Shown here: positions 24,680 through 38,963 of the stretch, piece by piece
How positions within the stretch are numbered: the stretch's first letter is position 1
Layout: the number at the start of each line of letters is the position of its first letter
Translations under genes and position numbers: made by a program
Assembly (NCBI GenBank): GCA_041664925.1
Contig: JBAYJV010000004.1
Coordinates: forward strand, 26,998-90,997
Source: Minisyncoccota bacterium
Lineage (GTDB): Bacteria; Patescibacteriota; Minisyncoccia; JBAYJV01
DNA length: 64,000 nucleotides
Direction: 5' to 3'
The notes under the pieces: model-generated
What the model was told of the DNA's origin: nothing
Databases searched by the model: none
What the model saw: only the letters and a program-made list of their open reading frames with translations

Positions 24680-24763
24680 TTCAGTGAAAACAAAGAAACT
24701 GAAAACTGATTAAATTTTAAGCTTAGAAGATATAAAAGTCAATTAAAAAAAGCCCTAAAATTG

Positions 24764-24878
24764 CTTGGCAACAACCTACTCTCCCACCCTTAATAGGACA
24801 GTACCATAGGCGCTGGCAGGCTTGACTTCCGTGTTCGGAATGGTAACGGGTATTTCCCTGTCGCTATAGCCACCAAGC
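24764..24878 (-). rRNA. rrf: 5S ribosomal RNA
   Basis: The reverse complement reads GCTTGGTGGCTATAGCG...CCGAACACGGAAGTCAAGCC...GGGAGAGTAGGTTGTTGCCAAG. Confidence 0.85.
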
Positions 24879-24902
24879 AATTTTAAGACTCTTTTTTTTG
24901 TT

Positions 24903-27900
24903 AAAGTTAGGGGCGTCATCACCTTCGGTTAATTAGTACTTCTTGGCTAAAATCTTCGCAGATCTTACACCTGAAGCCTATTATTCCACCAGAGGTGGAT
25001 ACCTGGTAATCTTCCAGGAACCTTAATGATACTTAATCTTGAGTTAGGTTTCGCACTTAGATGCTTTCAGTGCTTATCCTTTCCCGACGATAGCTACCCA
25101 GCCATGTCCTTGGCAGGACAACTGGTACACCAGAGGTCGGTTCCTTACGGTCCTCTCGTACTAGTAAGGAGTTCTCTCAAGTATCGACGCCTACGGCAGA
25201 TAGGAGACCAACCTGTCTTGCGACGGTCTGAACCCAGCTCGCGTATCTTTTTAATTGGCGAACAGCCAAACCCTTGGGACCTTCTCCAGCCCCAGGATAA
25301 GATGAGCCGACATCGAGGTGCCGAACAGGGTCGTCGATTTGGACTCTCGGACCCTACTAGCCTGTTATCCCCAGAGTAACTTTTATCTGTTAATCTTCCG
25401 CCTTTCTATTAAGGGCGGTCGGTTCACTAAGTTCTGCTTTCGCAATAGCTCGACTAATAAGTCTCGCTATAAAGCTGGCTTATAGCTTTACCCTATCCTC
25501 GCCGTTTCCATCGGCAAGTAGCCAACCTTAATAAGCTCCACCGTTACTTTTTTGGTGGAAAGTGCCCCACTTAAACTACCCGCCTAATACTGTTCCCCAC
25601 TATGTGAGGTTAGAACTATTATTTTGAAAGAGTGGTATTTCACTGGCGACTCCATCCCAACCGAAATCAGGACTTCAAAGTCTCCCACATATTCTACGCA
25701 TCCAAAACAAAAGCTCAATATCAAGTTGCAGTAAAGCTTCTGGGGTCTTTTCGTCTAGCCGTAGGTAATCGGCATCTTCACCGATATTGCAATTTCACCG
25801 AGCTCCTCGTTGAGACAGTTCTCCAGTCGTGACGCCATTCATGCGAGACAGAAGTTACCTGCCAAGGTATTTCGCTACCTTAGGACGATTATAGTTATCG
25901 CCGTCGTTCACTGGCGCTTACATCACGAGCCTTGCCCATAAGGACAAAACAAGCGATGCTTGACGTTCCAGCACTGGACAGGCGTCAGCCCCTATACTTC
26001 CTATTACTAGTTCGCAGAGACCTGTGTTTTTGATAAACAGTCGCCGGAGATCATTTGCTGTGGCCCCGATAAATCGGGGCAGGTCTTATCCCTAAGTTAC
26101 GACCACTTTTTTGCCTAGTTCCTTAACGAGGAATCACTCGTTCGCCTTCCCACTTTTATGGGAACCCACCTGTTTCGGATTTAAGTACGAATCCTATTTG
26201 TCTAATCTGAGAAGTTTTTCTTGGAAGCCTGCTCGCTCTACTTCCCCTGGCCGAGGCCAGAGTTCGATTCACTCCTTTGATTTGTCATTAAAGACAGTTT
26301 CCCGGATTTGCCTAAGAAACAATCCTTAGAGAAAAAACGCGAATCCAATAACGCGCTAGAGTTACTAAACTTCGTCACTCCATCGAAACAAATAGGAGGG
26401 CCGGAATATTAACCGGCTGTCCATCCCCTATACCCTCTCGGGTTAAGAGTTAGGATCGCCTAACCCTTGGCTGAAGTTCATTGCCAAGGAAACCTTGGGT
26501 TTTCGGCGGTCCGATTTCTCATCGGACTTGTGGTTACTCATGCCAACATTCTCACTTCCGTCCTCTCCATCGAACTTTACAGTTCAACTTCACTGTGAAC
26601 GGAACGCTTCCCTACCGCCCAGCAAAAATGCTGGGCCCACATCTTCGGTATTAAGCTTAGCCCCGTGAATCTTCGACGCATTCTGCCACCTCCGGCAAGC
26701 CGGAGTTCGAATGGTGAGTTGTTACACACTCCTTAGATGATTGCTACTTCTGAGCAAACATCCCATCTGTCTATGGCAAAATACTTCCTTCCTCACTTAG
26801 CTTAAATTTTGGGACCTTAGATGGTGGTCTAGGCTGTTTCCTTCTTGAGCACGGAGCTTAGCCCCCATGCTCTTACTGCCCCATAATTATTTCTGGCATT
26901 CGGAGTTTGTTTGGATGCAGTAGGAAAAATCCATCCACACCCATTCAGTGCTCTACCTCCAGAAACGTAAATGAGACGCTAGCCCTAAAGCTATTTCGGG
27001 AAGAACCAGCTATTACCAAGCTCGATAAGCTTTTCACTGCTAACCACAGATCATCCCACTTTATTGCACAGAAGACGGGTTCGGACCTCCTCCGCCTTTT
27101 ACAGCGAATTCATCCTGTCCATGGTTAGATCGCCTGGCTTCGGGTCTGTTGCTAACAACCGTGAACGCCATTTTAAGACTCGCTTTCGCTATGACTACCC
27201 CCACACTTTGCGCTCCATTTTTTTAGTATGAAATGCAAGGCGCGGGGTTAATCAAGCTGTTAACAACAACTCGTTGGCTCGTTCTACAAAAAGCACGCCG
27301 TCAGGGCGTAGAATAAATCTGCACCCCTCCGACTCATTGTAGGTATATAGTTTCATGTTCTATTTCACCGCCCTCACCGGGCTACTTTTCACCTTTCCCT
27401 CGCGGTACTAGTTCACTATAGATCATCAAGAGTATTTAGCCTTACCTGATAGTACAGGTAGATTCCTCCAGTTTCAGGCCGGAGTACTCAAGAATGACAA
27501 CCAGAAGTATATAGCCGTTTTCGTCTACGGGACTTTCACCCTCTTTGGTGGCTCTTTCCAGAGACCTTTGACTAACGAAGCTATATAAGCTCCTCGTGAA
27601 AAAATCACATTGTTATCATCTTACGACCCCCCAACGAAAACGTTGAGGTTTGGGCTGTTCCCTTTTCGCTCGCCGCTACTTGGGGAATACTTCGCTTCGC
27701 ACATTTTATCAAAACTTACTGAAATCTACGCTGAGAAACGCTGAAAAAATATATTATCTGCATTAATCGGCGTAGTCATCAGTATGAATTTGAAATGCGA
27801 AGTTATTTTTGGTTTCTTTTCCTCTGGCTACTAAGATGTTTCACTTCGCCAGGTTACCTTCCCAACATAAATGTCGGGATAATGGCCTTTAAGGCCATTG

Positions 27901-28030
27901 GGTTGCCCCATTCGGAAATCCTCGGATCACAGATTGCTCAGCATCTCACCGAGGCTTTTCGCAGCTATGCCACGTCCTTCATAGGCTCTTGATGTCAGGG
28001 AATCCACTATACACCCTTAGTTGGTGATGA
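24903..28030 (-). rRNA. rrl: 23S ribosomal RNA (about 3.1 kb; ends approximate)
   Basis: Sarcin-ricin loop (rc AGTACGAGAGGACCG at 25151-25167). The 5' end resembles GGTG.ATAGTGGATTCCCTGACATC and the 3' end GTACTAATTAACCGAAGG. Confidence 0.85.
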
Positions 28031-28287
28031 CACCTCTAACTTTAACATTTGATTTTGATTACCTAATATAGATTTTTAAAGTACATTTCCAAGAAAAATC
28101 TTTTATTTCAAATAAAGGACTTTTCTTGGGAAATCAGGGTAACTTAAAAGCCGCTCATTTTTCACAAACACGGGCGGCTTGAACAAACACACTAACGATC
28201 AACTAACTAGCCGCTCGATTAAGGTTTATTTAATTGCCTGATTTTTAACACTATTTTCCAAACAAGCTAAAAATACTTGTACAACAC

Positions 28288-28315
28288 ATTATATATCCAC
28301 AATTTTTCTTGTCAA
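28288..28315 (-). promoter_or_regulatory. Near-consensus sigma70-type promoter for the 23S-5S unit (TTGACA-N16-TATAAT on the minus strand)
   Basis: rc of 28280-28320 reads ggggcTTGACAagaaaaattgtggataTATAATgtg. It sits about 260 nt upstream of the 23S 5' end. Confidence 0.5.
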
Positions 28316-28370
28316 GCCCCGCCAATACTATCAGTGGATATTATGTGTATATTATTTTAAATAAATCGTT

Positions 28371-28462
28371 TTGAGTGGACCACTTGAAAATTCATTGGAA
28401 TCAAATCGTCCAAGAGTTGGCGGTTTGGGGTCAGTTACGAACAGAAACTGCTTTTGTTAATT
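28371..28462. other. Conserved ~90-nt non-coding element, copy B (paralogous to 22148-22240)
   Basis: It lies between the 551-aa gene stop and the 23S promoter. Shared core is AAAATTCATTGGAA.CAAATC.T.CAAGA.TTGGCGGTTTGG.GTCA.TT.C.AACAGA. Confidence 0.55.
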
Positions 28463-28538
28463 AATTTATCAAAATGGTTTACTAAATTCTACACCAAAAC
28501 TTGCTTCGGCGAACAATTATAAAGCTTCACTTGTTTCT

Positions 28539-30194
28539 CTATAAATAATGCCTAGACAAAAACCAAACTGGAATAATTCCCAATATAAATAAGCTTGCAA
28601 TACTCCAAAATGATAATGCCGCAAATAAACATAAAAAGACTAAAGAAAACGAAAAAGTAACGCTCGTTTTTGGTTTTCCTTTTGCGTCCCAACGTAAAAA
28701 TAGATAAAAACCAAGTAGTGTAAAAATATTACTAAGCCCAATCAACGCATATTTTATAAAATTTCGGTAATAGATTAATCCTATAATTCCACCCGCTAAG
28801 AAAGACAAGATGAAAGTAAGAAATATATAAAGAAAAATATTAAAGACAAGGGAAGTCTTAGAATTGTCTAGCCAATTAGAAATATGTAACATTAAAGAAA
28901 TTTTTAAGGGCGAGCCTTCTTTCATCCATAAATCTTTTTTAAGCGATTGAGCTGGAGCATTAATAGTTATTTTTGTGTAGTTAACATTTTTATTTTCATA
29001 AAACTCATTTAATTCTTTAGAGGGTGTAAATATTGTATCGTTAACATTTTTTTCTTGATCATTTTCAAGCCGATCAAACACCCAAGCCCTTCCCGCTCCC
29101 GACATTATTGCTATTTCATAATTGTCTTTATCGCCATGGAATAAAAAGGGTGATAAGCAGTATTTTTCCATATCTTTAATGAAATTTTTAGCGTCAGATC
29201 CATTATTTGGATCATTGCTTAAATCTTCTAATGAAGAAGGGAAGGAATTATAATTTCCATGATACAGCTCAAGTGACGACTTAAGACGATATATAGAAGA
29301 TCGGCACCAACGATCAAGATAGTCGGTTTGCATGTCTAAAAAATACTCTACTTTTGTGTATGGCTTTATTTCTGAAAAAATCTCTGGCTTAACATGTCCA
29401 AAAATTCTAATTGTCATCGGTACTTGTTTTTCACCATATATACTAGTAGGGATTAAAGGATAATAAATTTTTTGTGTAGGGAAAGCGATAAAAATACCTC
29501 TTTGTTTATCATCATTATTTAGGTTCTTAGATGAAAGCCAGGAAACCACAAAAACATAGTCTTGATTCATATACGAGCTTAGTGTTGTCATGTCCCCCTG
29601 TTTCACTTTTAGGCCTTTATTAGAAAGGTAATTATATAAGGATTCAGTTTTTTGGGCTGTGATTGTTTCCATTATCATACCATTTTTCTCTATGTGTTGA
29701 TTTACGGAAATAAAATCTCCTGACGTTGATCCAGTGCCTGATCCACCACGAGCACTTGTAAGCGATGTCCCGACCACAACAACTGGAAAAAAAGACCAAA
29801 ATTGACTAGTTGCACTTATAAAAAATAAGTTTTTGAGTGATCTTGAAAGTGCAAGTTTTATCTTAGACATAACTTCATAACCTCCGAAAACTGGTATCTC
29901 AGACATAATATTCATTTTTATCTCTTTTGCTTTTCCAGGGATAGGCATTATCCACACAGTATCAGAATTTTGTTCATCAATATCTACCACTACGACCAGT
30001 TTTTCTTGTCCATTTTGGTAATTAATAAAGGCTTCCTGATTATTTTCATCGGCTAGCACTAAATCACCATTAGGTAAGCGTCTATGTGCATAGCCATCGC
30101 CATTGGCACAAAAAGGAGAGCTTAATAAAGTTATTATGAATAAAGAAATGATAAGTTTTTTAATCATTATGATTTTATTTACTTTTATGCTCAT
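28539..30194 (-). CDS. Hypothetical secreted/membrane protein (N-terminal signal, C-terminal multi-TM region)
   Basis: A 551-aa ORF with coherent codon usage, a signal peptide and about 4 C-terminal TM helices. No family assigned. Confidence 0.45.
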   Translation of the reverse strand: MSIKVNKIIMIKKLIISLFIITLLSSPFCANGDGYAHRRLPNGDLVLADENNQEAFINYQNGQEKLVVVVDIDEQNSDTVWIMPIPGKAKEIKMNIMSEIPVFGGYEVMSKIKLALSRSLKNLFFISATSQFWSFFPVVVVGTSLTSARGGSGTGSTSGDFISVNQHIEKNGMIMETITAQKTESLYNYLSNKGLKVKQGDMTTLSSYMNQDYVFVVSWLSSKNLNNDDKQRGIFIAFPTQKIYYPLIPTSIYGEKQVPMTIRIFGHVKPEIFSEIKPYTKVEYFLDMQTDYLDRWCRSSIYRLKSSLELYHGNYNSFPSSLEDLSNDPNNGSDAKNFIKDMEKYCLSPFLFHGDKDNYEIAIMSGAGRAWVFDRLENDQEKNVNDTIFTPSKELNEFYENKNVNYTKITINAPAQSLKKDLWMKEGSPLKISLMLHISNWLDNSKTSLVFNIFLYIFLTFILSFLAGGIIGLIYYRNFIKYALIGLSNIFTLLGFYLFLRWDAKGKPKTSVTFSFSLVFLCLFAALSFWSIASLFILGIIPVWFLSRHYL

Positions 30195-30396
30195 ATTTTA
30201 CCACAGAACTTTAATTTACAGATGTGCATAATACTAAAGTCACGGATGGGCAAAGCAAAAAGCCACGACCAGTGTGGCTTACAAGAATTTTGTAGACTCG
30301 ACCGGATTCCCTCCTTCTCCCTGCAAGCCGGGATTCGGACGGGCAAAGCGAACTAGTGACCTCCCCGGCATGCCGGGGCGTTCTATTTTAAACACA

Positions 30397-30469
30397 TGGA
30401 CCGATGGGGACTCGAACCCCAGACCTCCGCATTGCAAATGCGATGCTCTACCAACTGAGCTATCGGCCC
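30397..30469 (-). tRNA. tRNA-Ala (anticodon TGC) with the G3:U70 identity pair
   Basis: GGGCCGATAGCTCAGTTGGTAGAGC..., anticodon loop TTTGCAA, GGTTCGAGTCC. The acceptor has G3-T70. Confidence 0.9.
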
Positions 30470-30589
30470 GTTAGATTTTGTTATTGAACGCAGTGAAATC
30501 TAAAAAATCTTACGCCCTACCGTAGCTTTTTAGCGAAGGCGGGCAACAACATTGACTGTTAACAAATATACTTCATTTGCACCAAAAAA

Positions 30590-31771
30590 TCAATCACCGC
30601 TTAGTGTTTTCATATAAATTTCATGGGTTTTTTTTGCCATTTCTTGCCAGTCATATTTTTCTAAAATATTCTGAGCTTCCATTAGAAGTTTAATTTGAAG
30701 CCTTTTGTCCTGCAAAAGAACATTTAATTTATTCGCCATATCTTCCGGATTGTGAGGATCAAAATAAATAGATGAGTTTTTTAACACTTCTTTTAGAGGG
30801 TCAATATTGGAGCAAGCAACGGCCGTACCTTGGTTGAGCGCTTCAATTGTCACAAGACCAAAACCCTCGTAAAGAGAAGGTAAAACAAAAACATCTGCTG
30901 CTTGATATAAAAGATTTAATTTTTCGCCATAAAGAAATCCTGGTCTTATGATCTTGTTTTCCAATCCTCTTTTTTTCCACTCTTCTCTTGTTTCCGGATA
31001 ATAAGAATCTTCTGTCCCTCCCAAGACTAAATTGCCTTGAAAATTATATTTTTTTACTAAAATATCAAAAGCGTGGATAAGGTTTGGTAGATTTTTGTGC
31101 TCTCGCCACACGCCAACATAGAAAATGTATGGTTTTCTTAGATTTTTTAAGTTAAATTTTGACTGGAGATTTTTAAGCGCTATTTCTTTATTCTGAGTAT
31201 AGTTTTCAAGAAATTCTTTTCTTTGATCTGCTGTATTTTTATACTTAATGCCCTCATAAATGATTCCTATCTTATCTTTTTCAACTTTATAAAAATTAAT
31301 TAAATCTTTTTTTGTTTTTTCTGATGGAGTAATAATGTGTTTTGCTTTTTTTGTGCCGACTTTCAAAATTAAATCATAAGCTTTTCTCTTGTACCAACTT
31401 TGTCCCATTTTGTGCCCTGGAAAAAATTTAGGCGTAATATCGTGAATCGTTGTTATATATTTGCCCCGATAAAAAATAGGTAAATTGAAATGAGGAAAAT
31501 GAACTAAATCAAGTTTATATTTCAATAAATCGTGCAAAAAGAATATTTGTTCTTTGGCACTATACCAATGAGAAGTGACTTTTATTTTTTTAAAGTTTTC
31601 TCCAGGTAAAATTATAGATTCCATTGCATCTGGCAATAAAAAAATAAAATAATAATTAATTTTATCTATTTTGGCTAGATAATCTATGAGATACTGAATG
31701 TAGGTACCAATGCCGGTTTGTTGCGGTCCATACATTCTTGCATCAATGCCAATTTTGAATTTTTTATCCAT
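30590..31771 (-). CDS. Glycosyltransferase family 4
   Basis: A C-terminal 'EGFGLVTIEAL' GT4 motif and a GT-B-like N-domain. Length is 393 aa. Confidence 0.8.
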   Translation of the reverse strand: MDKKFKIGIDARMYGPQQTGIGTYIQYLIDYLAKIDKINYYFIFLLPDAMESIILPGENFKKIKVTSHWYSAKEQIFFLHDLLKYKLDLVHFPHFNLPIFYRGKYITTIHDITPKFFPGHKMGQSWYKRKAYDLILKVGTKKAKHIITPSEKTKKDLINFYKVEKDKIGIIYEGIKYKNTADQRKEFLENYTQNKEIALKNLQSKFNLKNLRKPYIFYVGVWREHKNLPNLIHAFDILVKKYNFQGNLVLGGTEDSYYPETREEWKKRGLENKIIRPGFLYGEKLNLLYQAADVFVLPSLYEGFGLVTIEALNQGTAVACSNIDPLKEVLKNSSIYFDPHNPEDMANKLNVLLQDKRLQIKLLMEAQNILEKYDWQEMAKKTHEIYMKTLSGD

Positions 31772-32921
31772 TATTTTTAAATAATTTTATTGTTTCCTGG
31801 GCACAGTTTTTCCAATTAAATTTCTGAGAAATTTTTATAGCTTTTTTTTCAAGCTTATTTCTTAAGGCTGGATCATTTAAAAGCAATTCCATTGCCCATG
31901 TAATTTCACTATATCGATATGGGTCGATCATAATCCCCCCTTCTCCAACGACAGAAGAAAGTGACGATCTATTGGATGCAATAATCGGCAAGCCACAACT
32001 CATCGCCTCAAGAATTGGCAATCCAAATCCTTCAAAGAAACTGGGATACACAAAAATCTTTGCTAGATTATACAGATAAATTCTCTCGTTTCGATCTATT
32101 GGTCCTAAGAAAAATATATCTTTTTTATAATTAGATTTTTGGATTTCGTGAAAAATTTTTCTAAAAAGCCATCCTTTTGGTCCCGCCAAAACTAACTTAT
32201 ATTTACCAAACTCAGAATTGCAATTTCTTAAAAGATTATAAGCCTTAACAATAGACACTATGTTTTTCCTAGGCTCCAGTGTTCCGAGATATAGAATGAA
32301 ATCATTGGGTAAGTTGTGTTTTTGTATAATCTTCTTTAAAGTTTTACTAGATTTTTCAATTGGTTTTAGGTCTTCCCCTTTCCCCAAGGAAATAACTGTG
32401 ATTTTGCCTTTTTTGATATTGTAGAAATATTCTATGTCTTGTTTTGTTGATTCAGAAACAGAAAAAATTTTCTTCGATCTCTCAGCTAAAAATTTTGGCC
32501 TAATAAACCAGTGCCAAAGCCTGCTTTTATAAGAAAAAAATTCAGGAAATCTTTTAAAAGAAAGGTCGTGAAATGTAATGATTGTTTTTTTTAGAATATG
32601 CTCTGGAATAATATTAATATTTGGAGCAAAAAATACATCGGGTCTTTCAAGAAATTTATCTAAATTTGGCCAATTAAGAAAACGCCAACAAACAGCAAGT
32701 AGTTTATTTGGATAATTTAAATGTTTGTTTCCTACATTAGAATATTTTTTGCATAATTCCTTTATATCGTCGTGAATTAGTTTATTTTTCCCGCTAGAAA
32801 ATAATAAATATTTATTTTCTTGATCAATTTTAAAAATTTCTTCAAGCAAACACAAAAGATATTCCTGAACTCCAGAATGTATTCTGTCCTGCAATGCCCT
32901 GATATCAATTGCGATTTTCAT
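31764..32921 (-). CDS. Glycosyltransferase family 4
   Basis: 'EGFGLPILEAMSCGLPIIAS' motif. It overlaps the downstream GT4 gene by 8 nt, which suggests an operon. Confidence 0.8.
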   Translation of the reverse strand: MKIAIDIRALQDRIHSGVQEYLLCLLEEIFKIDQENKYLLFSSGKNKLIHDDIKELCKKYSNVGNKHLNYPNKLLAVCWRFLNWPNLDKFLERPDVFFAPNINIIPEHILKKTIITFHDLSFKRFPEFFSYKSRLWHWFIRPKFLAERSKKIFSVSESTKQDIEYFYNIKKGKITVISLGKGEDLKPIEKSSKTLKKIIQKHNLPNDFILYLGTLEPRKNIVSIVKAYNLLRNCNSEFGKYKLVLAGPKGWLFRKIFHEIQKSNYKKDIFFLGPIDRNERIYLYNLAKIFVYPSFFEGFGLPILEAMSCGLPIIASNRSSLSSVVGEGGIMIDPYRYSEITWAMELLLNDPALRNKLEKKAIKISQKFNWKNCAQETIKLFKNNG

Positions 32922-32998
32922 AAATTACAAACTAATAATATTTGCGTTTTTTGTTCTATTCATTTAGCATACCACCCAAAAACTTTTTTGAAAAGAAA

Positions 32999-33023
32999 AG
33001 CGAGACAAAAATCTTGTCTCGCT
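32999..33023 (-). terminator. Stem-loop terminator-like hairpin (GCGAGACAA-loop-TTGTCTCGC)
   Basis: A perfect 9-bp stem immediately downstream of the 117-aa gene. Confidence 0.45.
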
Positions 33024-33030
33024 TGCTTTC

Positions 33031-33384
33031 TTAAAAACTACTACGAGTGGTAAATCGAATACCGTCTTCCATGTCTCTTTTTGTTCTTTCAAATTCTTCT
33101 TTTTCTTTTTTCAGAACGTCACTTACTAAATCTTCGGGTATTACAAGAAGAAGATCGGGCCAGAATGGAAGCTTTAGCAGATAACTTTTGGTTTTTTCAT
33201 CCCAATAGTAATAAATCCGAAAATCTAGTCTTTCGCCTTCAGAATGCAAAACACATAACATTCCTACTTCTGCTTTATCCTTTATCTCAAGTATTGCGTC
33301 ATTTCCTATATCTCTAAGACTATATCTGGGACCCATAATACTTTCTACTAGTTTTCTTATGTGTTTTGCTGTGATTTGACTCAT
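33031..33384 (-). CDS. Hypothetical protein
   Basis: A 117-aa ORF. No family could be recognised. Confidence 0.4.
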   Translation of the reverse strand: MSQITAKHIRKLVESIMGPRYSLRDIGNDAILEIKDKAEVGMLCVLHSEGERLDFRIYYYWDEKTKSYLLKLPFWPDLLLVIPEDLVSDVLKKEKEEFERTKRDMEDGIRFTTRSSF

Positions 33385-33622
33385 CTGTTTTTCTCCTCTT
33401 CCTTTGAAAACTTCTAAATACCAACTCTTGTTTTGGGCTTACTTGTTTACACTTATCACCTCCTCATTTTTTAAAGAACAAAAAATAGCCCTTTGATAGG
33501 CTATTTTATTATCAAGAACTTTATTAGATTTTTAGAAAAAGAAAAAACAACCTATCTAGGACTAGTTATTAAAAACCACCAAAACAAATTGTTATAAAAC
33601 TTTTTATTCATATTTTTCTATG

Positions 33623-33696
33623 TGGGCGTACTTGGACTTGAACCAAGGACCTCGTCATTATCAGTGACGCGCTCTAGCCAACTGAGCTATACGCCC
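33623..33696 (-). tRNA. tRNA-Ile (anticodon GAT)
   Basis: GGGCGTATAGCTCAGTTGGCTAGAGC, anticodon stem CGTCA/TGACG, loop CTGATAA, GGTTCAAGTCC. A hairpin at about 33492-33520 looks like its terminator. Confidence 0.9.
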
Positions 33697-33797
33697 GTAA
33701 TTTAGAATATAAGCTATTTTACAAAAATATCAGATAAAATCAAGTCTGTACGCAAAATATCTGACAAAACATCATTACTTCTTAATCCTGACCATTG

Positions 33798-34541
33798 CTA
33801 ACATTTATCCCAAATAAATTGAAACCATTGCCTATAACTTTCTGCTAATAATTTGTTTTTGGTAATAATAACCGTTATTCTTTCGTCAAATCTTCCAACG
33901 CTTTTAATTACGACTGTGGCTATTCGATCTCCGTATATATCTATAGTTGCCTGACTATCATATTGTTTGGGTAAAATTTTGTATTGCCAAAATTTCTCAC
34001 GACCTTTAATTAGCTTTTTAAATTCTTCTTTTGCCTTGTCATCCACAAGAGTGTTTAATTTTATTTTTTTCTTTTTTGCTTCAATCCAAAATTCATCCAT
34101 AAAAGAAGATATTTGTTCATCCGCCCAAGCACTTTTTATTCCGACAGCATAAATGTTTTCTCCGACTTCGAGAATGTCTCTAAATAAATTTTTATATCCC
34201 TCAATCCCCTTATATATAGACACATCTTCTTCTAGATATTTATCTTTATAAAGTTTTTTTAGCTTAGGCAAAACTTTTTCTACTGCTATTTTTTTCTCTC
34301 CAACAATTTCTAATAGTTTTACAGGATTTACGGCGGCATACTTATGTTCTTGGCTGGTTACAATACACGAAAGAAGTCCTTTTTCAACAAGACGATTAAC
34401 AGTATCATAGACATTTCTTCGATGGATATTAGCGCGAAGTGCTATGTCTGAAACTGAAGATCGTCCCAGCTCAAGGAGAGTTTCATAGACTTTTGCCTCA
34501 TTTAAAGACAGCCCAATAGATTGAAATAATTCTGTGTACAT
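33798..34541 (-). CDS. TrmB-family (HTH) transcriptional regulator
   Basis: An N-terminal wHTH 'LSLNEAKVYETLLELGRSSVSDIALRANIHRRNVYDTVNRLVEKGLL' is typical of TrmB-like regulators. Length is 247 aa. Confidence 0.6.
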   Translation of the reverse strand: MYTELFQSIGLSLNEAKVYETLLELGRSSVSDIALRANIHRRNVYDTVNRLVEKGLLSCIVTSQEHKYAAVNPVKLLEIVGEKKIAVEKVLPKLKKLYKDKYLEEDVSIYKGIEGYKNLFRDILEVGENIYAVGIKSAWADEQISSFMDEFWIEAKKKKIKLNTLVDDKAKEEFKKLIKGREKFWQYKILPKQYDSQATIDIYGDRIATVVIKSVGRFDERITVIITKNKLLAESYRQWFQFIWDKC

Positions 34542-34615
34542 GGTTATTTTATTAGTTTATTGAATTAAATTTGGAATTGAATTAATCAAAAATGGTCAAA
34601 AATACTGTGGTGGTG

Positions 34616-34644
34616 TTGGCCACTCATATATGATATGATAAAAT
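34616..34644 (+). promoter_or_regulatory. Putative sigma70-type promoter (TTGGCC-N17-TAAAAT) for the paralog pair
   Basis: The hexamers are visible in the divergent intergenic region between the TrmB-like gene and ORF A. Confidence 0.4.
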
Positions 34645-34654
34645 GGTATTAGGG

Positions 34655-34671
34655 TCAAGAATCGTTCTTGA
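34655..34671. promoter_or_regulatory. Perfect inverted-repeat operator candidate TCAAGAA-tcg-TTCTTGA
   Basis: A 7-bp IR with a 3-bp spacer between the putative -10 and the RBS of ORF A. It lies next to a divergently transcribed HTH regulator. Confidence 0.45.
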
Positions 34672-34700
34672 TTGTTCCTAAAAAAACAAAGGAGGAAATC

Positions 34701-35078
34701 GTGAGGAAATTCAAAGTAGAAAAAACTAGAATCCACAATGTTTTTTCTCCAGGAAATCGGTATCCATTCAATCTATTTCTAGAAACCACCTCTGGCGGTT
34801 CTGTAGTTGCGTTTATTGATAATGATAGTTCCTATACTTGTTCGTCGGATGACATTCGTTCATCAATTGAAGAAGCTTGGAAAAAATTGACTATAGTACT
34901 TTGTCAAAACAAAAATATTCTAGGCATCGCGATAGTTGCCCATCCATTCGAAATTCGTTGTAGCTTCAAGAGAGAAAACTATGAAGGAGATAAGTGTGAA
35001 AGCTTTATTGCTATCTTTCTGGCCGACCTTCGGAAGAATGGTTGGATAATACCCGACTACTATATCATCCAGAATTGA
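34701..35078 (+). CDS. Hypothetical protein, paralog A of a tandem pair (GTG start)
   Basis: RBS AAGGAGGAAATC then GTG. It is a paralog of the downstream ORF (shared 'EK..I..F.P.NR.P.F.L.L', 'W K.L.I', 'C...R......D.SF.IA.L..LRK..W'). GC content is higher than the surroundings. Confidence 0.5.
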   Translation: MRKFKVEKTRIHNVFSPGNRYPFNLFLETTSGGSVVAFIDNDSSYTCSSDDIRSSIEEAWKKLTIVLCQNKNILGIAIVAHPFEIRCSFKRENYEGDKCESFIAIFLADLRKNGWIIPDYYIIQN

Positions 35079-35102
35079 TCACTGCAAACAAAGGAGGAAA
35101 TC

Positions 35103-35549
35103 GTGAAAGTCGTAGCAGAAAAAGTAACGATATCGGGTATGTATGCGCCGAATCATCGACTTCCATCATTCACATTGGTTCTAAAGAAAAAGGTTCGCAG
35201 TCGCAAAATCAATGTGAATGTTGACGATATTCACGATTCGACACTTCTTGAAAGTTTTTCTTTTGACGAAACCTGGAAAGAGCTTGTGATTGCGTTTATG
35301 CAAATTGAACTCACAGAAAGTGTTACTGCTAATAAGTACTATCATAGAGGCCTTCAATGTTCTGTTAGAAAACCGGTCACTTCGGTCACTCTATCCGACT
35401 TCACTATTGCCCTATTAGATAGTTTTCGAGAGAAGAAGTGGAACTTCGAAGACTGTTATGTAAATCACGAATACATTGCCAGAGATGAAAAAGGATTATC
35501 ACCAACAGATAAAATTCAAATGGCAATTAAAAAGACCACCAGTTCTTAA
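35103..35549 (+). CDS. Hypothetical protein, paralog B of a tandem pair (GTG start)
   Basis: The upstream motif is identical (caaaggaggaaatcGTG), and it encodes 148 aa. Confidence 0.55.
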   Translation: MKVVAEKVTISGMYAPNHRLPSFTLVLKKKVRSRKINVNVDDIHDSTLLESFSFDETWKELVIAFMQIELTESVTANKYYHRGLQCSVRKPVTSVTLSDFTIALLDSFREKKWNFEDCYVNHEYIARDEKGLSPTDKIQMAIKKTTSS

Positions 35550-35557
35550 GAAAAAAA

Positions 35558-35589
35558 AGAGCTCCAGAAATGGGGCTCTTCTTTTTTTA
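35558..35589. terminator. Bidirectional rho-independent terminator (AGAGCTCC-loop-GGGGCTCT, flanked by A/T runs)
   Basis: aaaaaaaagagctccagaaatggggctcttcttttttt lies between the end of ORF B (+) and the 3' end of 16S (-). Confidence 0.6.
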
Positions 35590-35752
35590 CATAAAAAAAC
35601 ACCCAAAAAATATTAAGTGTTCTTTTTTAAACCAATTCTTTAGGGTTACCCCGAGACTGATTTTTTGAGATGTTCAGTCGCATCTCTGTCTTGTCCAATG
35701 GACAAGAGGTCGACTCCCACCCCGAACAATAAAGTTCAGAGTGAAGATTCTC

Positions 35753-37340
<1,588 letters not shown>

Positions 37341-37499: not shown

Positions 37500-38963
37500 T
37501 TAATAATTAGTAGATTTATTTTCTTTTATTATTTCTTGTTCTAAATAATCAGCAAGTAAGAATAAATCTTCTTCTCTGAATGGTTTTCCTATTAATTGCA
37601 CACCTATCGGCATTTTTCCAACTTTTCCGCAGGGTAAACTAATTGCCGGTAACCCTGCTAAATTAGCCGGAACCGTAAATATATCTGAAAGATACATCTC
37701 TAACGGGCTAATTTTTTCGCCAACTTTAAATGCAGGAGTCGGAGTTGTCGGAGTAAGTAAGATATCGTATTTTTTAAATATCTCTGAAAACTCGTCTCGA
37801 ATAATCTGTCTCATTGCCTGAGCTCTAATATAATAATCATCATAATAACCTGAGCTTAGAGCATAAGTACCTAGTATAATACGCCTTCTTGTCTCGTTAC
37901 CAAAACCACTAGTACGATTTTGAATATAAATATCGATAAGATTTTTTTCTTGTTTCTTAGAGGATTTTTGCCCGTAGCGGAGATTATCATAACGAGCTAA
38001 GTTAGCTGAAGCTTCTGACGGCATAATTATATAGTATGTCGCCAAAGCATAGTCCGTATGAGAAAGACTGGTTTTTTCTACACTAAATCCTTTTTTCGTA
38101 AGTTGTTCAATTAGGTAATCTATATTTCCTTTAATGTTCTTGTCTAGGCTTTGAGGAAAATATTCCACAGGAATACCGATTTTTAATTTCTTAGGATCTT
38201 TAATAAAAATCTCATTCACGCTAGATACATCATGGTCTTCTCTAGAAGTTGCGTCAAAAGGATCTTTTCCACGTATCAAGTCAAATACATAAGCTGATTC
38301 TTTGACTGTCTTAGTTAGTGGTCCTATAACATCAAGAGATGAAGCTAAAGATATGAGTCCATAGCGACTCACGCTACCGTATGTCGGCTTTAAACCAACA
38401 ACCCCACAGAATGCTGCCGGTTGCCTAACAGAACCACCTGTTTCCGATCCTAGAGCAAATAGACATTCTCCCCCTGCTACTGCCGCAGCTGATCCACCAG
38501 ACGATCCGCCAGGAACTTTTTCTGTGTCATGAGGATTTTTTGTTACAAAAAATGCTGAATTTTCTGTTGAAGAACCCATGGCAAATTCATCAAGATTTGT
38601 TTTTCCCAAAAAAATCGTTTTTTCCTTTCTAAGTTTTTTTATTACAGTTGCGTCGTAACTTGCCACATAATTTTCTAATACTCTTGATCCAGCAGTAGCT
38701 CTTTGTTCTTTAATTAGAATGTTGTCTTTGATAGCTGCCGGTATGCCACAAAACAACCCCATTTTCTCTTTTTGGCCTATGGTCTTGTCTATTTCTCGAG
38801 CATCTTCTATTGCCCTATTATTTACGCGCAAAAAAGCGCTAAATTTTTTATCTTTTTCTTCTATTCTTTTTAGGAAATATTCTGTCAATTCTTCAACAGA
38901 TATTTTTCTCTCATTTAGAAGATTATTAATTTCAAAAATTGTTTTTTTCTCAAAATTAATCAT
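37500..38963 (-). CDS. gatA: Glutamyl-tRNA(Gln)/aspartyl-tRNA(Asn) amidotransferase subunit A
   Basis: Amidase signature 'GGSSGGSAAAVA...GSETGGSVRQPA'. Length is 487 aa. Confidence 0.9.
   Translation of the reverse strand: MINFEKKTIFEINNLLNERKISVEELTEYFLKRIEEKDKKFSAFLRVNNRAIEDAREIDKTIGQKEKMGLFCGIPAAIKDNILIKEQRATAGSRVLENYVASYDATVIKKLRKEKTIFLGKTNLDEFAMGSSTENSAFFVTKNPHDTEKVPGGSSGGSAAAVAGGECLFALGSETGGSVRQPAAFCGVVGLKPTYGSVSRYGLISLASSLDVIGPLTKTVKESAYVFDLIRGKDPFDATSREDHDVSSVNEIFIKDPKKLKIGIPVEYFPQSLDKNIKGNIDYLIEQLTKKGFSVEKTSLSHTDYALATYYIIMPSEASANLARYDNLRYGQKSSKKQEKNLIDIYIQNRTSGFGNETRRRIILGTYALSSGYYDDYYIRAQAMRQIIRDEFSEIFKKYDILLTPTTPTPAFKVGEKISPLEMYLSDIFTVPANLAGLPAISLPCGKVGKMPIGVQLIGKPFREEDLFLLADYLEQEIIKENKSTNY

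Follow-up and report, generated by a model that had tools for sequence, protein, structure and literature searches.

The locus described here lies in a stretch of 64,000 nucleotides (64 kb, called the window throughout) of contig JBAYJV010000004.1, whose source lineage is Candidatus Paceibacterota, in the candidate phyla radiation (CPR). Two small open reading frames (ORFs), ORF A (34701-35078, + strand) and ORF B (35103-35549, + strand), stand there inside the rRNA operon and are divergent from a gene for a TrmB-type regulator (33798-34541, - strand); from right to left, between the 16S rRNA gene and tRNA-Ile, the order is a hairpin terminator, ORF B, ORF A, an intergenic region of 159 bp and the regulator gene. 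A TrmB-type local repressor with a divergent target is a known type of locus. Our analysis indicates that this one is probably an instance of a recurrent CPR regulatory module, made up of a TrmBL2-like regulator of ~247 amino acids (aa) and a compact bidirectional control region in which CACC/GGTG half-sites, resembling the Thermococcales glycolytic motif (TGM), would serve as the operator, and that ORF A and ORF B are its lineage-specific, fast-evolving cargo.

The regulator gene encodes 247 aa, and its product is assigned to a family of TrmBL2-like winged-helix proteins of about that length. The Pfam TrmB model (PF01978) matches at aa 7-73 with an E-value (E) of 6.6e-16 and 58.4 bits, above the gathering cut-off of 25.6, which bears out the divergent TrmB-type helix-turn-helix (HTH) regulator that a preliminary description of this DNA had placed on the opposite strand; the same model is matched by 20 of 20 aligned family members. 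Homologs are present in CPR and DPANN (209 full-length sequences with 40-50% identity), and a pattern scan of CPR species-representative genomes returned 247 relatives, from which the 80 loci (L007-L086) of our family analyses were taken. In a comparison of sequences only, positions 7-246 of the family profile align with residues 11-261 of TrmBL2 (PDB 5BOX; E 1.9e-6), and the regulator has all the family-invariant residues, including R41, R42, Y45, D46 and R50 in the HTH region. The C-terminal sugar-binding domain of TrmB has no Pfam match in the regulator, and the NCBIfam equivalogs for TrmB and TrmBL1 reach 24-42 bits against cut-offs of 500-650, in the N-terminal part of the protein only. 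A Csx3-like C-terminal domain (aa 170-215), weakly matched in three libraries (E 7e-5 to 5e-3), was discarded as spurious, since Pfam finds it in only one of 20 family members; in PADLOC-DB 2.0 the regulator matches through its generic HTH only, besides the weak Csx3 match. With the TrmB-family regulators of Thermococcales (TrmBL2, TrmBL1/TrmB) it has in common the N-terminal PF01978 winged helix and the full-length alignment to the TrmBL2 profile. It differs in that no sugar-binding domain such as that of TrmB/TrmBL1 is detected, in that its host is a bacterium (Patescibacteria) with overlapping divergent promoters of the sigma-70 type, and in that it would act as a local divergent regulator with a different cargo at each locus.

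Special attention was given to the DNA upstream of the regulator genes, where about 70 of the 80 family loci have a common bidirectional control region within ~200 nt. On the regulator strand its composite element reads GAGTGGCcAATA.CACCAtatGGTG.ta.tTa.CACCAc, and the consensus over the 80 loci can also be written GAGTGGCCAAT-A-n-CACCA-YR-TGGTG-nTAnnTAn-CACCAC. The palindrome CACC-N4-GGTG occurs in 44 of the 200-nt upstream regions, at a density of 2.66/kb as opposed to 0.014/kb outside these regions (~190-fold), and the half-site TGGTGNTA is enriched ~30-fold upstream of the family regulators; a short form of the operator is present in eight of 71 loci, the window included. The left end of the composite element, read on the opposite strand, is TTGGCCACTC. 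An outward promoter is indicated in the family because TTnnCC, as the -35 element, is found in 69 of 69 loci and is followed by TAnnnT 16-18 nt on in 59 of them; in all 69, TTnnCC is also followed by CCACTC. A GTCAA/TTGAC motif lies at a fixed offset from TTGGCC (38-62 nt; ~40 nt) in 37 of 70 loci, and on the regulator strand 30 of the 31 loci having TTGAC also have TAnnnT at 16-18 nt. Judged from these motifs, the family loci have two overlapping, back-to-back sigma-70-type promoters, each with its predicted -35 inside the region transcribed from the other; the putative operator sits on the outward -35 and on positions +1 to +40 of the regulator mRNA, which the TTGAC promoter would start at the operator edge.

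The TGM, TATCAC-N5-GTGATA, is bound by TrmBL1 in vitro and in vivo, and TrmBL1 represses when the motif lies on or downstream of promoter elements (PMC4706686). The family palindrome has the same CAC/GTG core (TAnCACC-A-YR-T-GGTGnTA, which equals TAnCAC-N6-GTGnTA), and the CPR site likewise lies on promoter elements, in the geometry of TrmBL1 repression; it departs from the TGM in its spacer of N6 instead of N5 and in its occurrence as a composite of up to four half-sites and as a short form. The arrangement also resembles the classical divergent repressor-target units (TetR/tetA and MarR-type loci), in which the regulator is divergent from its target, the promoters overlap and one operator is common to both. 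Because divergent overlapping promoters have one operator here too, repression of the target and autoregulation would be coupled. The protein family is another one, and the target at our locus is an orphan paralog pair and not a pump or an enzyme. In the literature searched, we found neither a paper combining 'TrmB' and 'candidate phyla radiation' nor a description of the CACC/GGTG bidirectional control region.

In the window, the predicted operator is of the short form and occupies 34607-34625, reading GTGGTGGTGTTGGCCACTC on the + strand and GAGTGGCCAACACCACCAC on the regulator strand (34625 to 34607). Corresponding to the a-b part of the family's composite element, it overlaps the -35 of the promoter for ORF A and ORF B, and it is 100% conserved in a second contig from the same Joint Genome Institute (JGI) sample (L001, described below). 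When a palindromic position weight matrix (PWM) built from the GGTG-N8-CACC sites of the family was run over the 64 kb, the best match was 34606-34627, which ranks first of 63,979 positions; the CACC-N4-GGTG palindrome is not found in the window, and elsewhere in the 64 kb no T1-type palindrome reaches the score of the training sites. A first metagenome DNA scan, with the palindrome between promoter and ribosome-binding site (RBS) plus that RBS as the query, gave 0 matches. A metagenome scan found the 22-mer GTGGTGGTGTTGGCCACTCATA, which comprises operator and -35, exactly in two unrelated contigs (L087:1563-1584 and L088:1585-1606) with a GC content of 48% and 55% and with flanks that cannot be aligned to the window. 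The copy in L087 lies directly next to the gene for a divergent regulator with 43% identity to that of the window; in L088 no TrmB-like ORF of at least 70 aa stands beside it in the ORF list that was inspected, and this copy may be a remote member of the regulon. In both contigs the 22-mer precedes homologous proteins (153 and 192 aa) with signal-peptide-like N-termini, a cargo unlike that of the window. Because the family element is conserved, the PWM ranks this site first and the 22-mer recurs exactly in L087 and L088, we infer that the operator is 34607-34625.

The predicted promoters of the window follow the family pattern. The outward ORF A/B promoter (34616-34644, + strand), TTGGCC-N17-TAAAAT in the preliminary description, was also listed by our promoter scan, with the -35 TTGGCC at 34616-21, a 17-nt spacer, the -10 TAAAAT at 34639-44 and an upstream TG that makes an extended element, TGaTAAAAT, of 34636-44. 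The regulator-facing promoter (34630-34658, - strand) is the best promoter-like site in the scan, with 10 of 12 matches (-35 TTGACC at 34658-34653, 17-nt spacer, -10 TATCAT at 34635-34630). Transcription is predicted to start at ~34651 (+) in the outward direction and at ~34623 (-), the operator edge, for the regulator.

A perfect 7-3-7 inverted repeat, TCAAGAAtcgTTCTTGA, does lie between the outward promoter and the RBS (34655-34671, + strand), as had been described. The proposal that it is the operator of the regulator finds no support in the family comparison: upstream of the 80 family regulators the TCAAGAA half-site is not enriched (0.18/kb vs 0.32/kb in the background), whereas the CACC/GGTG sites are enriched 30- to 190-fold. 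By chance, 160 nt would contain 0.15 perfect inverted repeats with arms of 7 nt or longer, so that the palindrome, taken by itself, could be a chance occurrence. The left arm, GGTCAAG, corresponds to the GTCAA motif of the family and overlaps the TTGACC -35 of the regulator promoter, and only the right arm is specific to this lineage. The 38-nt RNA segment at the predicted 5' end has a folding energy of -10.1 kcal/mol (z -3.4). Its equivalents in 69 family loci also fold more stably than shuffled sequences, with a mean z of -1.0 and with values below -1.5 in 38% of the loci, compared with 9-16% in three control windows. Perfect inverted repeats peak at this segment across the loci with arm sequences that are specific to each locus, and because the structure is kept while the arms vary, an RNA hairpin is favoured over a shared protein site. 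The palindrome is most likely a stem-loop in the 5' untranslated region of the ORF A/B mRNA, at about +4 to +22. Hairpins at 5' ends are known stabilisers of mRNAs, for example in the ompA, ermC and aprE leaders, which the present one resembles as a stable hairpin a few nucleotides from the predicted 5' end; it differs from them in that its DNA also overlaps a promoter -35, and a stabilising effect is putative here. We also considered whether the palindrome might be a second DNA site on the -35 of the regulator, either for another regulator or as an auxiliary site for the same one, and we regard this as unlikely: the left arm falls on the TTGACC -35 of the promoter that faces the regulator and an inverted repeat surrounds that -35 in about one third of the family loci, but the difference in arms between loci fits a structural requirement better than a common protein site, and the signal in the fold z-scores comes from the outward transcript.

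It is important to note that what is conserved across the family is the regulator and its control region, and not the genes on the other side. The 74 divergent neighbours examined comprise four recurrent families and ~40 singletons; the recurrent ones are, by our reading of the sequences, ~200-aa proteins with signal-peptide-like N-termini (13 loci) and symporter-like membrane proteins of ~490 aa (6 loci), together with Zn-ribbon proteins (7 loci) and small membrane proteins (7 loci, with an eighth in L012 by sequence similarity). The possibility that ORF A and ORF B are a conserved partner of the regulator, co-occurring with it in other genomes, was given up, as the divergent neighbours in L003-L006 and in those 74 further loci are unrelated to them. 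The idea of a self-contained regulated module stands in that regulator and pair have one control region, and falls in that only the regulator and that region are conserved while the cargo varies. The contigs L012 and L024, which belong to one lineage whose 16S rRNA is only ~76% identical to that of the window, have the layout 16S, ORF, divergent small membrane protein, regulator and tRNA-Ile(GAT) (L012:1-2778, L024:1949-5875). Because this is the layout of the window, the place of the regulator inside the rRNA operon must be old or recurrent; the slot next to the regulator appears to be old, with ORF A and ORF B as its lineage-specific occupants here.

ORF A (125 aa) starts with GTG, as in the NCBI annotation (locus name WC242_04995), which calls the same 125-aa product, and encodes an orphan alpha+beta protein; ORF B (148 aa) also starts with GTG and encodes its paralog with a C-terminal helix extension. 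Both were said to start behind an identical sequence, and the repeat proves to be longer than had been stated: AAACAAAGGAGGAAATCGTGA, with the Shine-Dalgarno (SD) sequence AAAGGAGG, a 5-nt spacer and the GTG, is present at 34684-34704 and again, as an exact repeat of 21 nt, at 35086-35106 (both + strand), where 0.01 matches are expected by chance. The hairpin terminator (35549-35590), listed by a terminator scan, separates the stop codon of ORF B from the 16S trailer and has an A-run on one side and a T-run on the other. With its T-run (35557-35588) it folds on both strands, at -19.6 kcal/mol (z -5.0) on the + strand and -16.4 kcal/mol (z -3.9) on the - strand, in agreement with the bidirectional terminator assigned to the end of the pair. 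Its stem of 10 bp with five G-C pairs and its T-run on the + strand, with the upstream A-run serving as the U-run on the - strand, have the form of an intrinsic terminator; by our reading, the stem with the two substitutions of L001 stays fully paired only as + strand RNA, where G-U pairs accommodate them. Another hairpin, inside ORF B (35164-35223), was dropped because we saw no compensatory change in L001.

The tandem paralogy of ORF A and ORF B was likewise recovered. BLASTP aligns them with 24% identity (E 2e-5), and an hhalign comparison of A with its L001 counterpart A' against B with B' gives a probability of 86% (E 5e-6, 115 columns); together with an identical order of predicted secondary-structure elements, this points to a weak but real relationship. 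AlphaFold2 models ORF A with a mean predicted local distance difference test (pLDDT) score of 78 and a predicted template modelling score (pTM) of 0.71, in the order strand-strand-strand-helix-strand-strand-helix, consistently across five models; for ORF B the model is weak (pLDDT 57) and has the same order of elements plus a C-terminal helix. The products are predicted to be soluble alpha+beta proteins of 14-17 kDa. The four proteins A, A', B and B' have P, L, S, Q, C, F, R and W as invariant residues, and because no His, Asp or Glu is conserved, the products are probably binding proteins rather than enzymes.

No match for either protein was found in Pfam, PHROGs, NCBIfam or PADLOC (PADLOC-DB 2.0, at E up to 1), and a sequence profile search of PDB gave nothing below E 0.2. 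A Foldseek search with the ORF A model returned nothing at E <= 0.001 (best E 0.076 in PDB and 0.063 in BFVD); its top matches in PDB were circularly permuted S6 and heavy-metal-associated (HMA) ferredoxin-like domains, with a query-normalised template modelling score of at most 0.44 among the top 50. These matches fit the order strand-strand-helix-strand-strand-helix but are uninformative on function, and they were taken to reflect a generic alpha+beta sandwich and not homology. An exhaustive profile search with HMMER of 1.84 billion cluster representatives returned only A and the A' and B' of L001, and two word-indexed searches returned only the same lineages, so that among ~15 billion proteins ORF A and ORF B are present in only two related lineages; their profile has no relative in 185,579 species genomes. 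A 1079-aa repeat protein (P0005) that appeared in the homology searches is spurious. The pair had been described as having no recognisable family, and these searches agree.

The only close comparison is with L001, a contig of 1.4 kb from the same JGI sample with the layout leader, A', B', terminator and 16S 3' end, whose partial 16S rRNA is 98.2% identical to that of the window. A' is 42% identical to ORF A, and B' is 69% (tblastn) or 71% (MAFFT alignment) identical to ORF B. The five insertions or deletions between window and L001, four in A and one in B, are all in frame; the frame of ORF A survives 133 substitutions (p 0.02) and that of ORF B 63 (p 0.10). The ratio of nonsynonymous to synonymous change is 0.46 for ORF A (dN/dS) and 0.99 for ORF B (pN/pS), and in codons 1-50 of ORF B dN/dS is 2.7, which is not significant (p 0.14). 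The non-coding DNA is more conserved than the genes: the leader (34604-34706) has three differences in ~100 nt, near identity is also seen between the stop codon of A and the start of B, over the final 28 codons of B and in the terminator, and the ORF A body is ~50-60% identical in the nucleotide alignment. In the stretch 35463-35660, which comprises the B tail, the terminator and the proximal 16S trailer, there is near identity and no synonymous change, while identity drops to 64-82% in the middle of ORF B and in the distal trailer (35660-35735), and to only 64% in part of the 16S trailer. Both copies of the initiation repeat carry the same A-to-G change in L001 (L001:128-148 and 530-550; AAATCGTG to AAGTCGTG), a concerted change. 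Recombination mosaicism, gene conversion or constraint at the nucleotide level could each explain the uneven divergence and the concerted change.

These comparisons also bear on whether the pair, or at least ORF B, is functional, as opposed to being a decaying or spurious frame beside a conserved promoter. The pN/pS of ORF B, the spread of its differences over the three codon positions (25/23/15), its retention p of only 0.10, its AlphaFold2 pLDDT of 57 and the lack of homologs beyond two lineages are what would be expected of such a frame. Nevertheless, both lineages keep intact frames with only the in-frame changes mentioned, and both retain the strong SD-plus-GTG regions and the terminator; ORF A in turn has its dN/dS of 0.46, a retention p of 0.02 and a pLDDT-78 fold in all five models, and ORF B is a detectable paralog of ORF A. 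On balance, we consider a lack of function very improbable, and we continue to treat ORF A and ORF B as genes.

Regarding their function, our best guess is a conditionally expressed accessory role, possibly related to conflict or to interaction with a host, although we give the latter only the weight of a minority possibility. A role in toxin immunity or defence is neither supported nor excluded by our searches. Type II toxin-antitoxin systems do not fit the pair, as A and B are related as paralogs, their separate regulator is from a different family, and no toxin or antitoxin match was found in Pfam or PADLOC; no template-like long repeat of the ORFs, as in a diversity-generating retroelement, is present within 34500-35700. 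Islands of polymorphic toxins and interbacterial defence carry tandem arrays of paralogous immunity genes. ORF A and ORF B resemble such genes in being small, soluble, tandem paralogs that, judged from one sequence pair, appear to diverge fast, with a narrow distribution and an atypical GC content at third codon positions (GC3), which is ~2.2-2.5 standard deviations above the mean of the long ORFs and thus atypical for the genome; they differ in having no toxin gene nearby and no match to any immunity family, in their dedicated transcription factor and in their site inside an rRNA operon. The raised local GC that had been remarked on is mild only (0.371 in ORF A and 0.381 in ORF B, against 0.340 +/- 0.032 in long ORFs; z ~1).

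Every sequence feature listed in the preliminary description is present where it was placed, and its reading of these features is borne out in part. The explanation first offered for the locus combined two claims, that the palindrome TCAAGAAtcgTTCTTGA is the TrmB-like operator and that ORF A and ORF B are a horizontally acquired pair for toxin-immunity, defence or stress. The palindrome is indeed perfect, conserved in L001, placed between the outward -10 and the RBS and overlapping the -35 of the regulator-facing promoter, and the two genes are fast-evolving, lineage-restricted and atypical in GC3. This combination is, even so, quite unlikely in our view: the lack of TCAAGAA enrichment and the enrichment of CACC/GGTG sites point to another operator, as does the presence in the regulator of all the family-invariant HTH-region residues; a palindrome of this size has the chance expectation given above; A and B are related to each other and are not a toxin with its antidote; neither has a PADLOC, Pfam or fold match; and among the called neighbours of the pair (16S, regulator, tRNA-Ile, glycosyltransferases, gatCA and ligA) there is no toxin, integrase, transposase or other mobility gene. 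A broader conjecture keeps the regulator family at its centre: the regulator and its near-invariant promoter-operator would form a generic, portable and tightly repressed CPR 'cargo slot' that is repeatedly given lineage-specific genes, and ORF A and ORF B would be a diversifying conflict or host-interaction pair (for example, immunity-like) of a fold class without a solved relative, silent until a signal releases the repressor. We offer it as a speculation with a small chance of being right in full.

The explanation that we prefer, a recurrent regulatory module with lineage-specific cargo, can be put together as follows. The short-form operator would cover the outward -35 (TTGGCC) and the initial ~20 nt of the transcript that encodes the regulator, and because of this position a bound regulator dimer is expected to repress both promoters. 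When active, the outward promoter would drive a bicistronic ORF A/B mRNA with a 5' stem-loop and two identical strong initiation regions, and this mRNA would end at the hairpin terminator, shortly ahead of the 16S trailer. The slot that holds unrelated genes in other family members would here be taken by ORF A and ORF B.

Several observations weigh against this explanation. The PWM score of the window site is 9.2, well below the 16.5-29 of the long-form training sites; the proximal GGTG...CACC half is absent in the window, and so is the TGM-like palindrome proper (the b-c half-sites); and the regulator ATG lies 85 nt from the site, a distance that is 23-41 nt in the remaining loci of the short form. 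What is said of binding, repression and transcription starts is all read from sequence, and the promoters are consensus matches in a group whose promoters are barely characterised. The hairpin reading draws on a statistical tendency present in ~40% of the loci, with no covariation because window and L001 are identical there. As to the cargo, the evolutionary rates come from a single sequence pair (window and L001), and ORF B, with no purifying selection and a low-confidence model, could be decaying. The explanation also leaves unexplained a sixfold gap in synonymous divergence between the two genes (0.94 in A, 0.16 in B), as well as the absence of any synonymous divergence in the final 28 codons of B together with the terminator, where ~4.5 synonymous changes are expected.

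As CPR orphans, ORF A and ORF B are ordinary in most respects; all the same, they provide a clean case in which a gene family that is either very young or evolving fast stands behind a control region of ancient origin within an rRNA operon. Of more value than the pair is a by-product of its study, the recurrent bidirectional operator-promoter of the regulator family, which with its ~40-80 bp is among the most conserved non-coding elements measured across the sampled loci. Since few CPR/Patescibacteria have been cultured, hardly any of their gene regulation has been explored, and the regulator family provides testable predictions in the form of operator sequences, predicted transcription starts and a list of cargo genes.

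The surrounding rRNA operon (24763-37340) preserves the canonical order on one strand (-): the 16S rRNA gene (35758-37340; Rfam SSU_rRNA_bacteria, 1432 bits), tRNA-Ile(GAT), which is the canonical spacer tRNA and lies directly downstream of the regulator gene (33622-33696; ARAGORN), tRNA-Ala(TGC) (30397-30469), the 23S rRNA (24914-28030) and the 5S rRNA (24763-24877), the last three identified with Rfam/ARAGORN. ORF A and ORF B, on the + strand, are antisense to all of these genes, as the preliminary description had it. Its placement of the pair inside the rRNA spacer is right by gene order, provided that this 'spacer' is understood as a 16S-23S distance of 7.7 kb with six protein genes interleaved in the operon; those named are ORF A, ORF B, the regulator, a 117-aa orphan, two glycosyltransferases of family 4 (GT4) and a 551-aa protein. 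According to Brewer et al. (bioRxiv 10.1101/705046), unlinked rRNA genes are a typical feature of Patescibacteria. The 7.7 kb of the window, above the 1.5-kb criterion, agrees with such unlinked or expanded operons, from which the window differs in keeping the canonical order and strand, with protein genes interleaved. The 117-aa ORF (33031-33384, - strand), directly downstream of tRNA-Ile, has no match in any profile library, and it was ruled out as a third ORF A/B paralog by an hhalign probability of 0.2%.

Some further observations were made along the operon. A perfect palindrome, CTCCTTTGAAAGGAG, at 35750-35764 spans the 3' end of the 16S rRNA and is the same in L001; it allows the anti-Shine-Dalgarno sequence to pair with the bases at the start of the trailer. 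Beyond the 16S rRNA gene, gatA is a single ORF of 487 aa in the window (37500-38963) and two genes (162 and 334 aa) in a near-identical JGI contig (L002:12398-13859), where the split is probably a frameshift or an assembly error. Finally, in the genome of L024 a group I intron match (Rfam RF00028, 61 bits; L024:7694-7944, - strand) adjoins a 229-aa ORF between the two spacer tRNAs.

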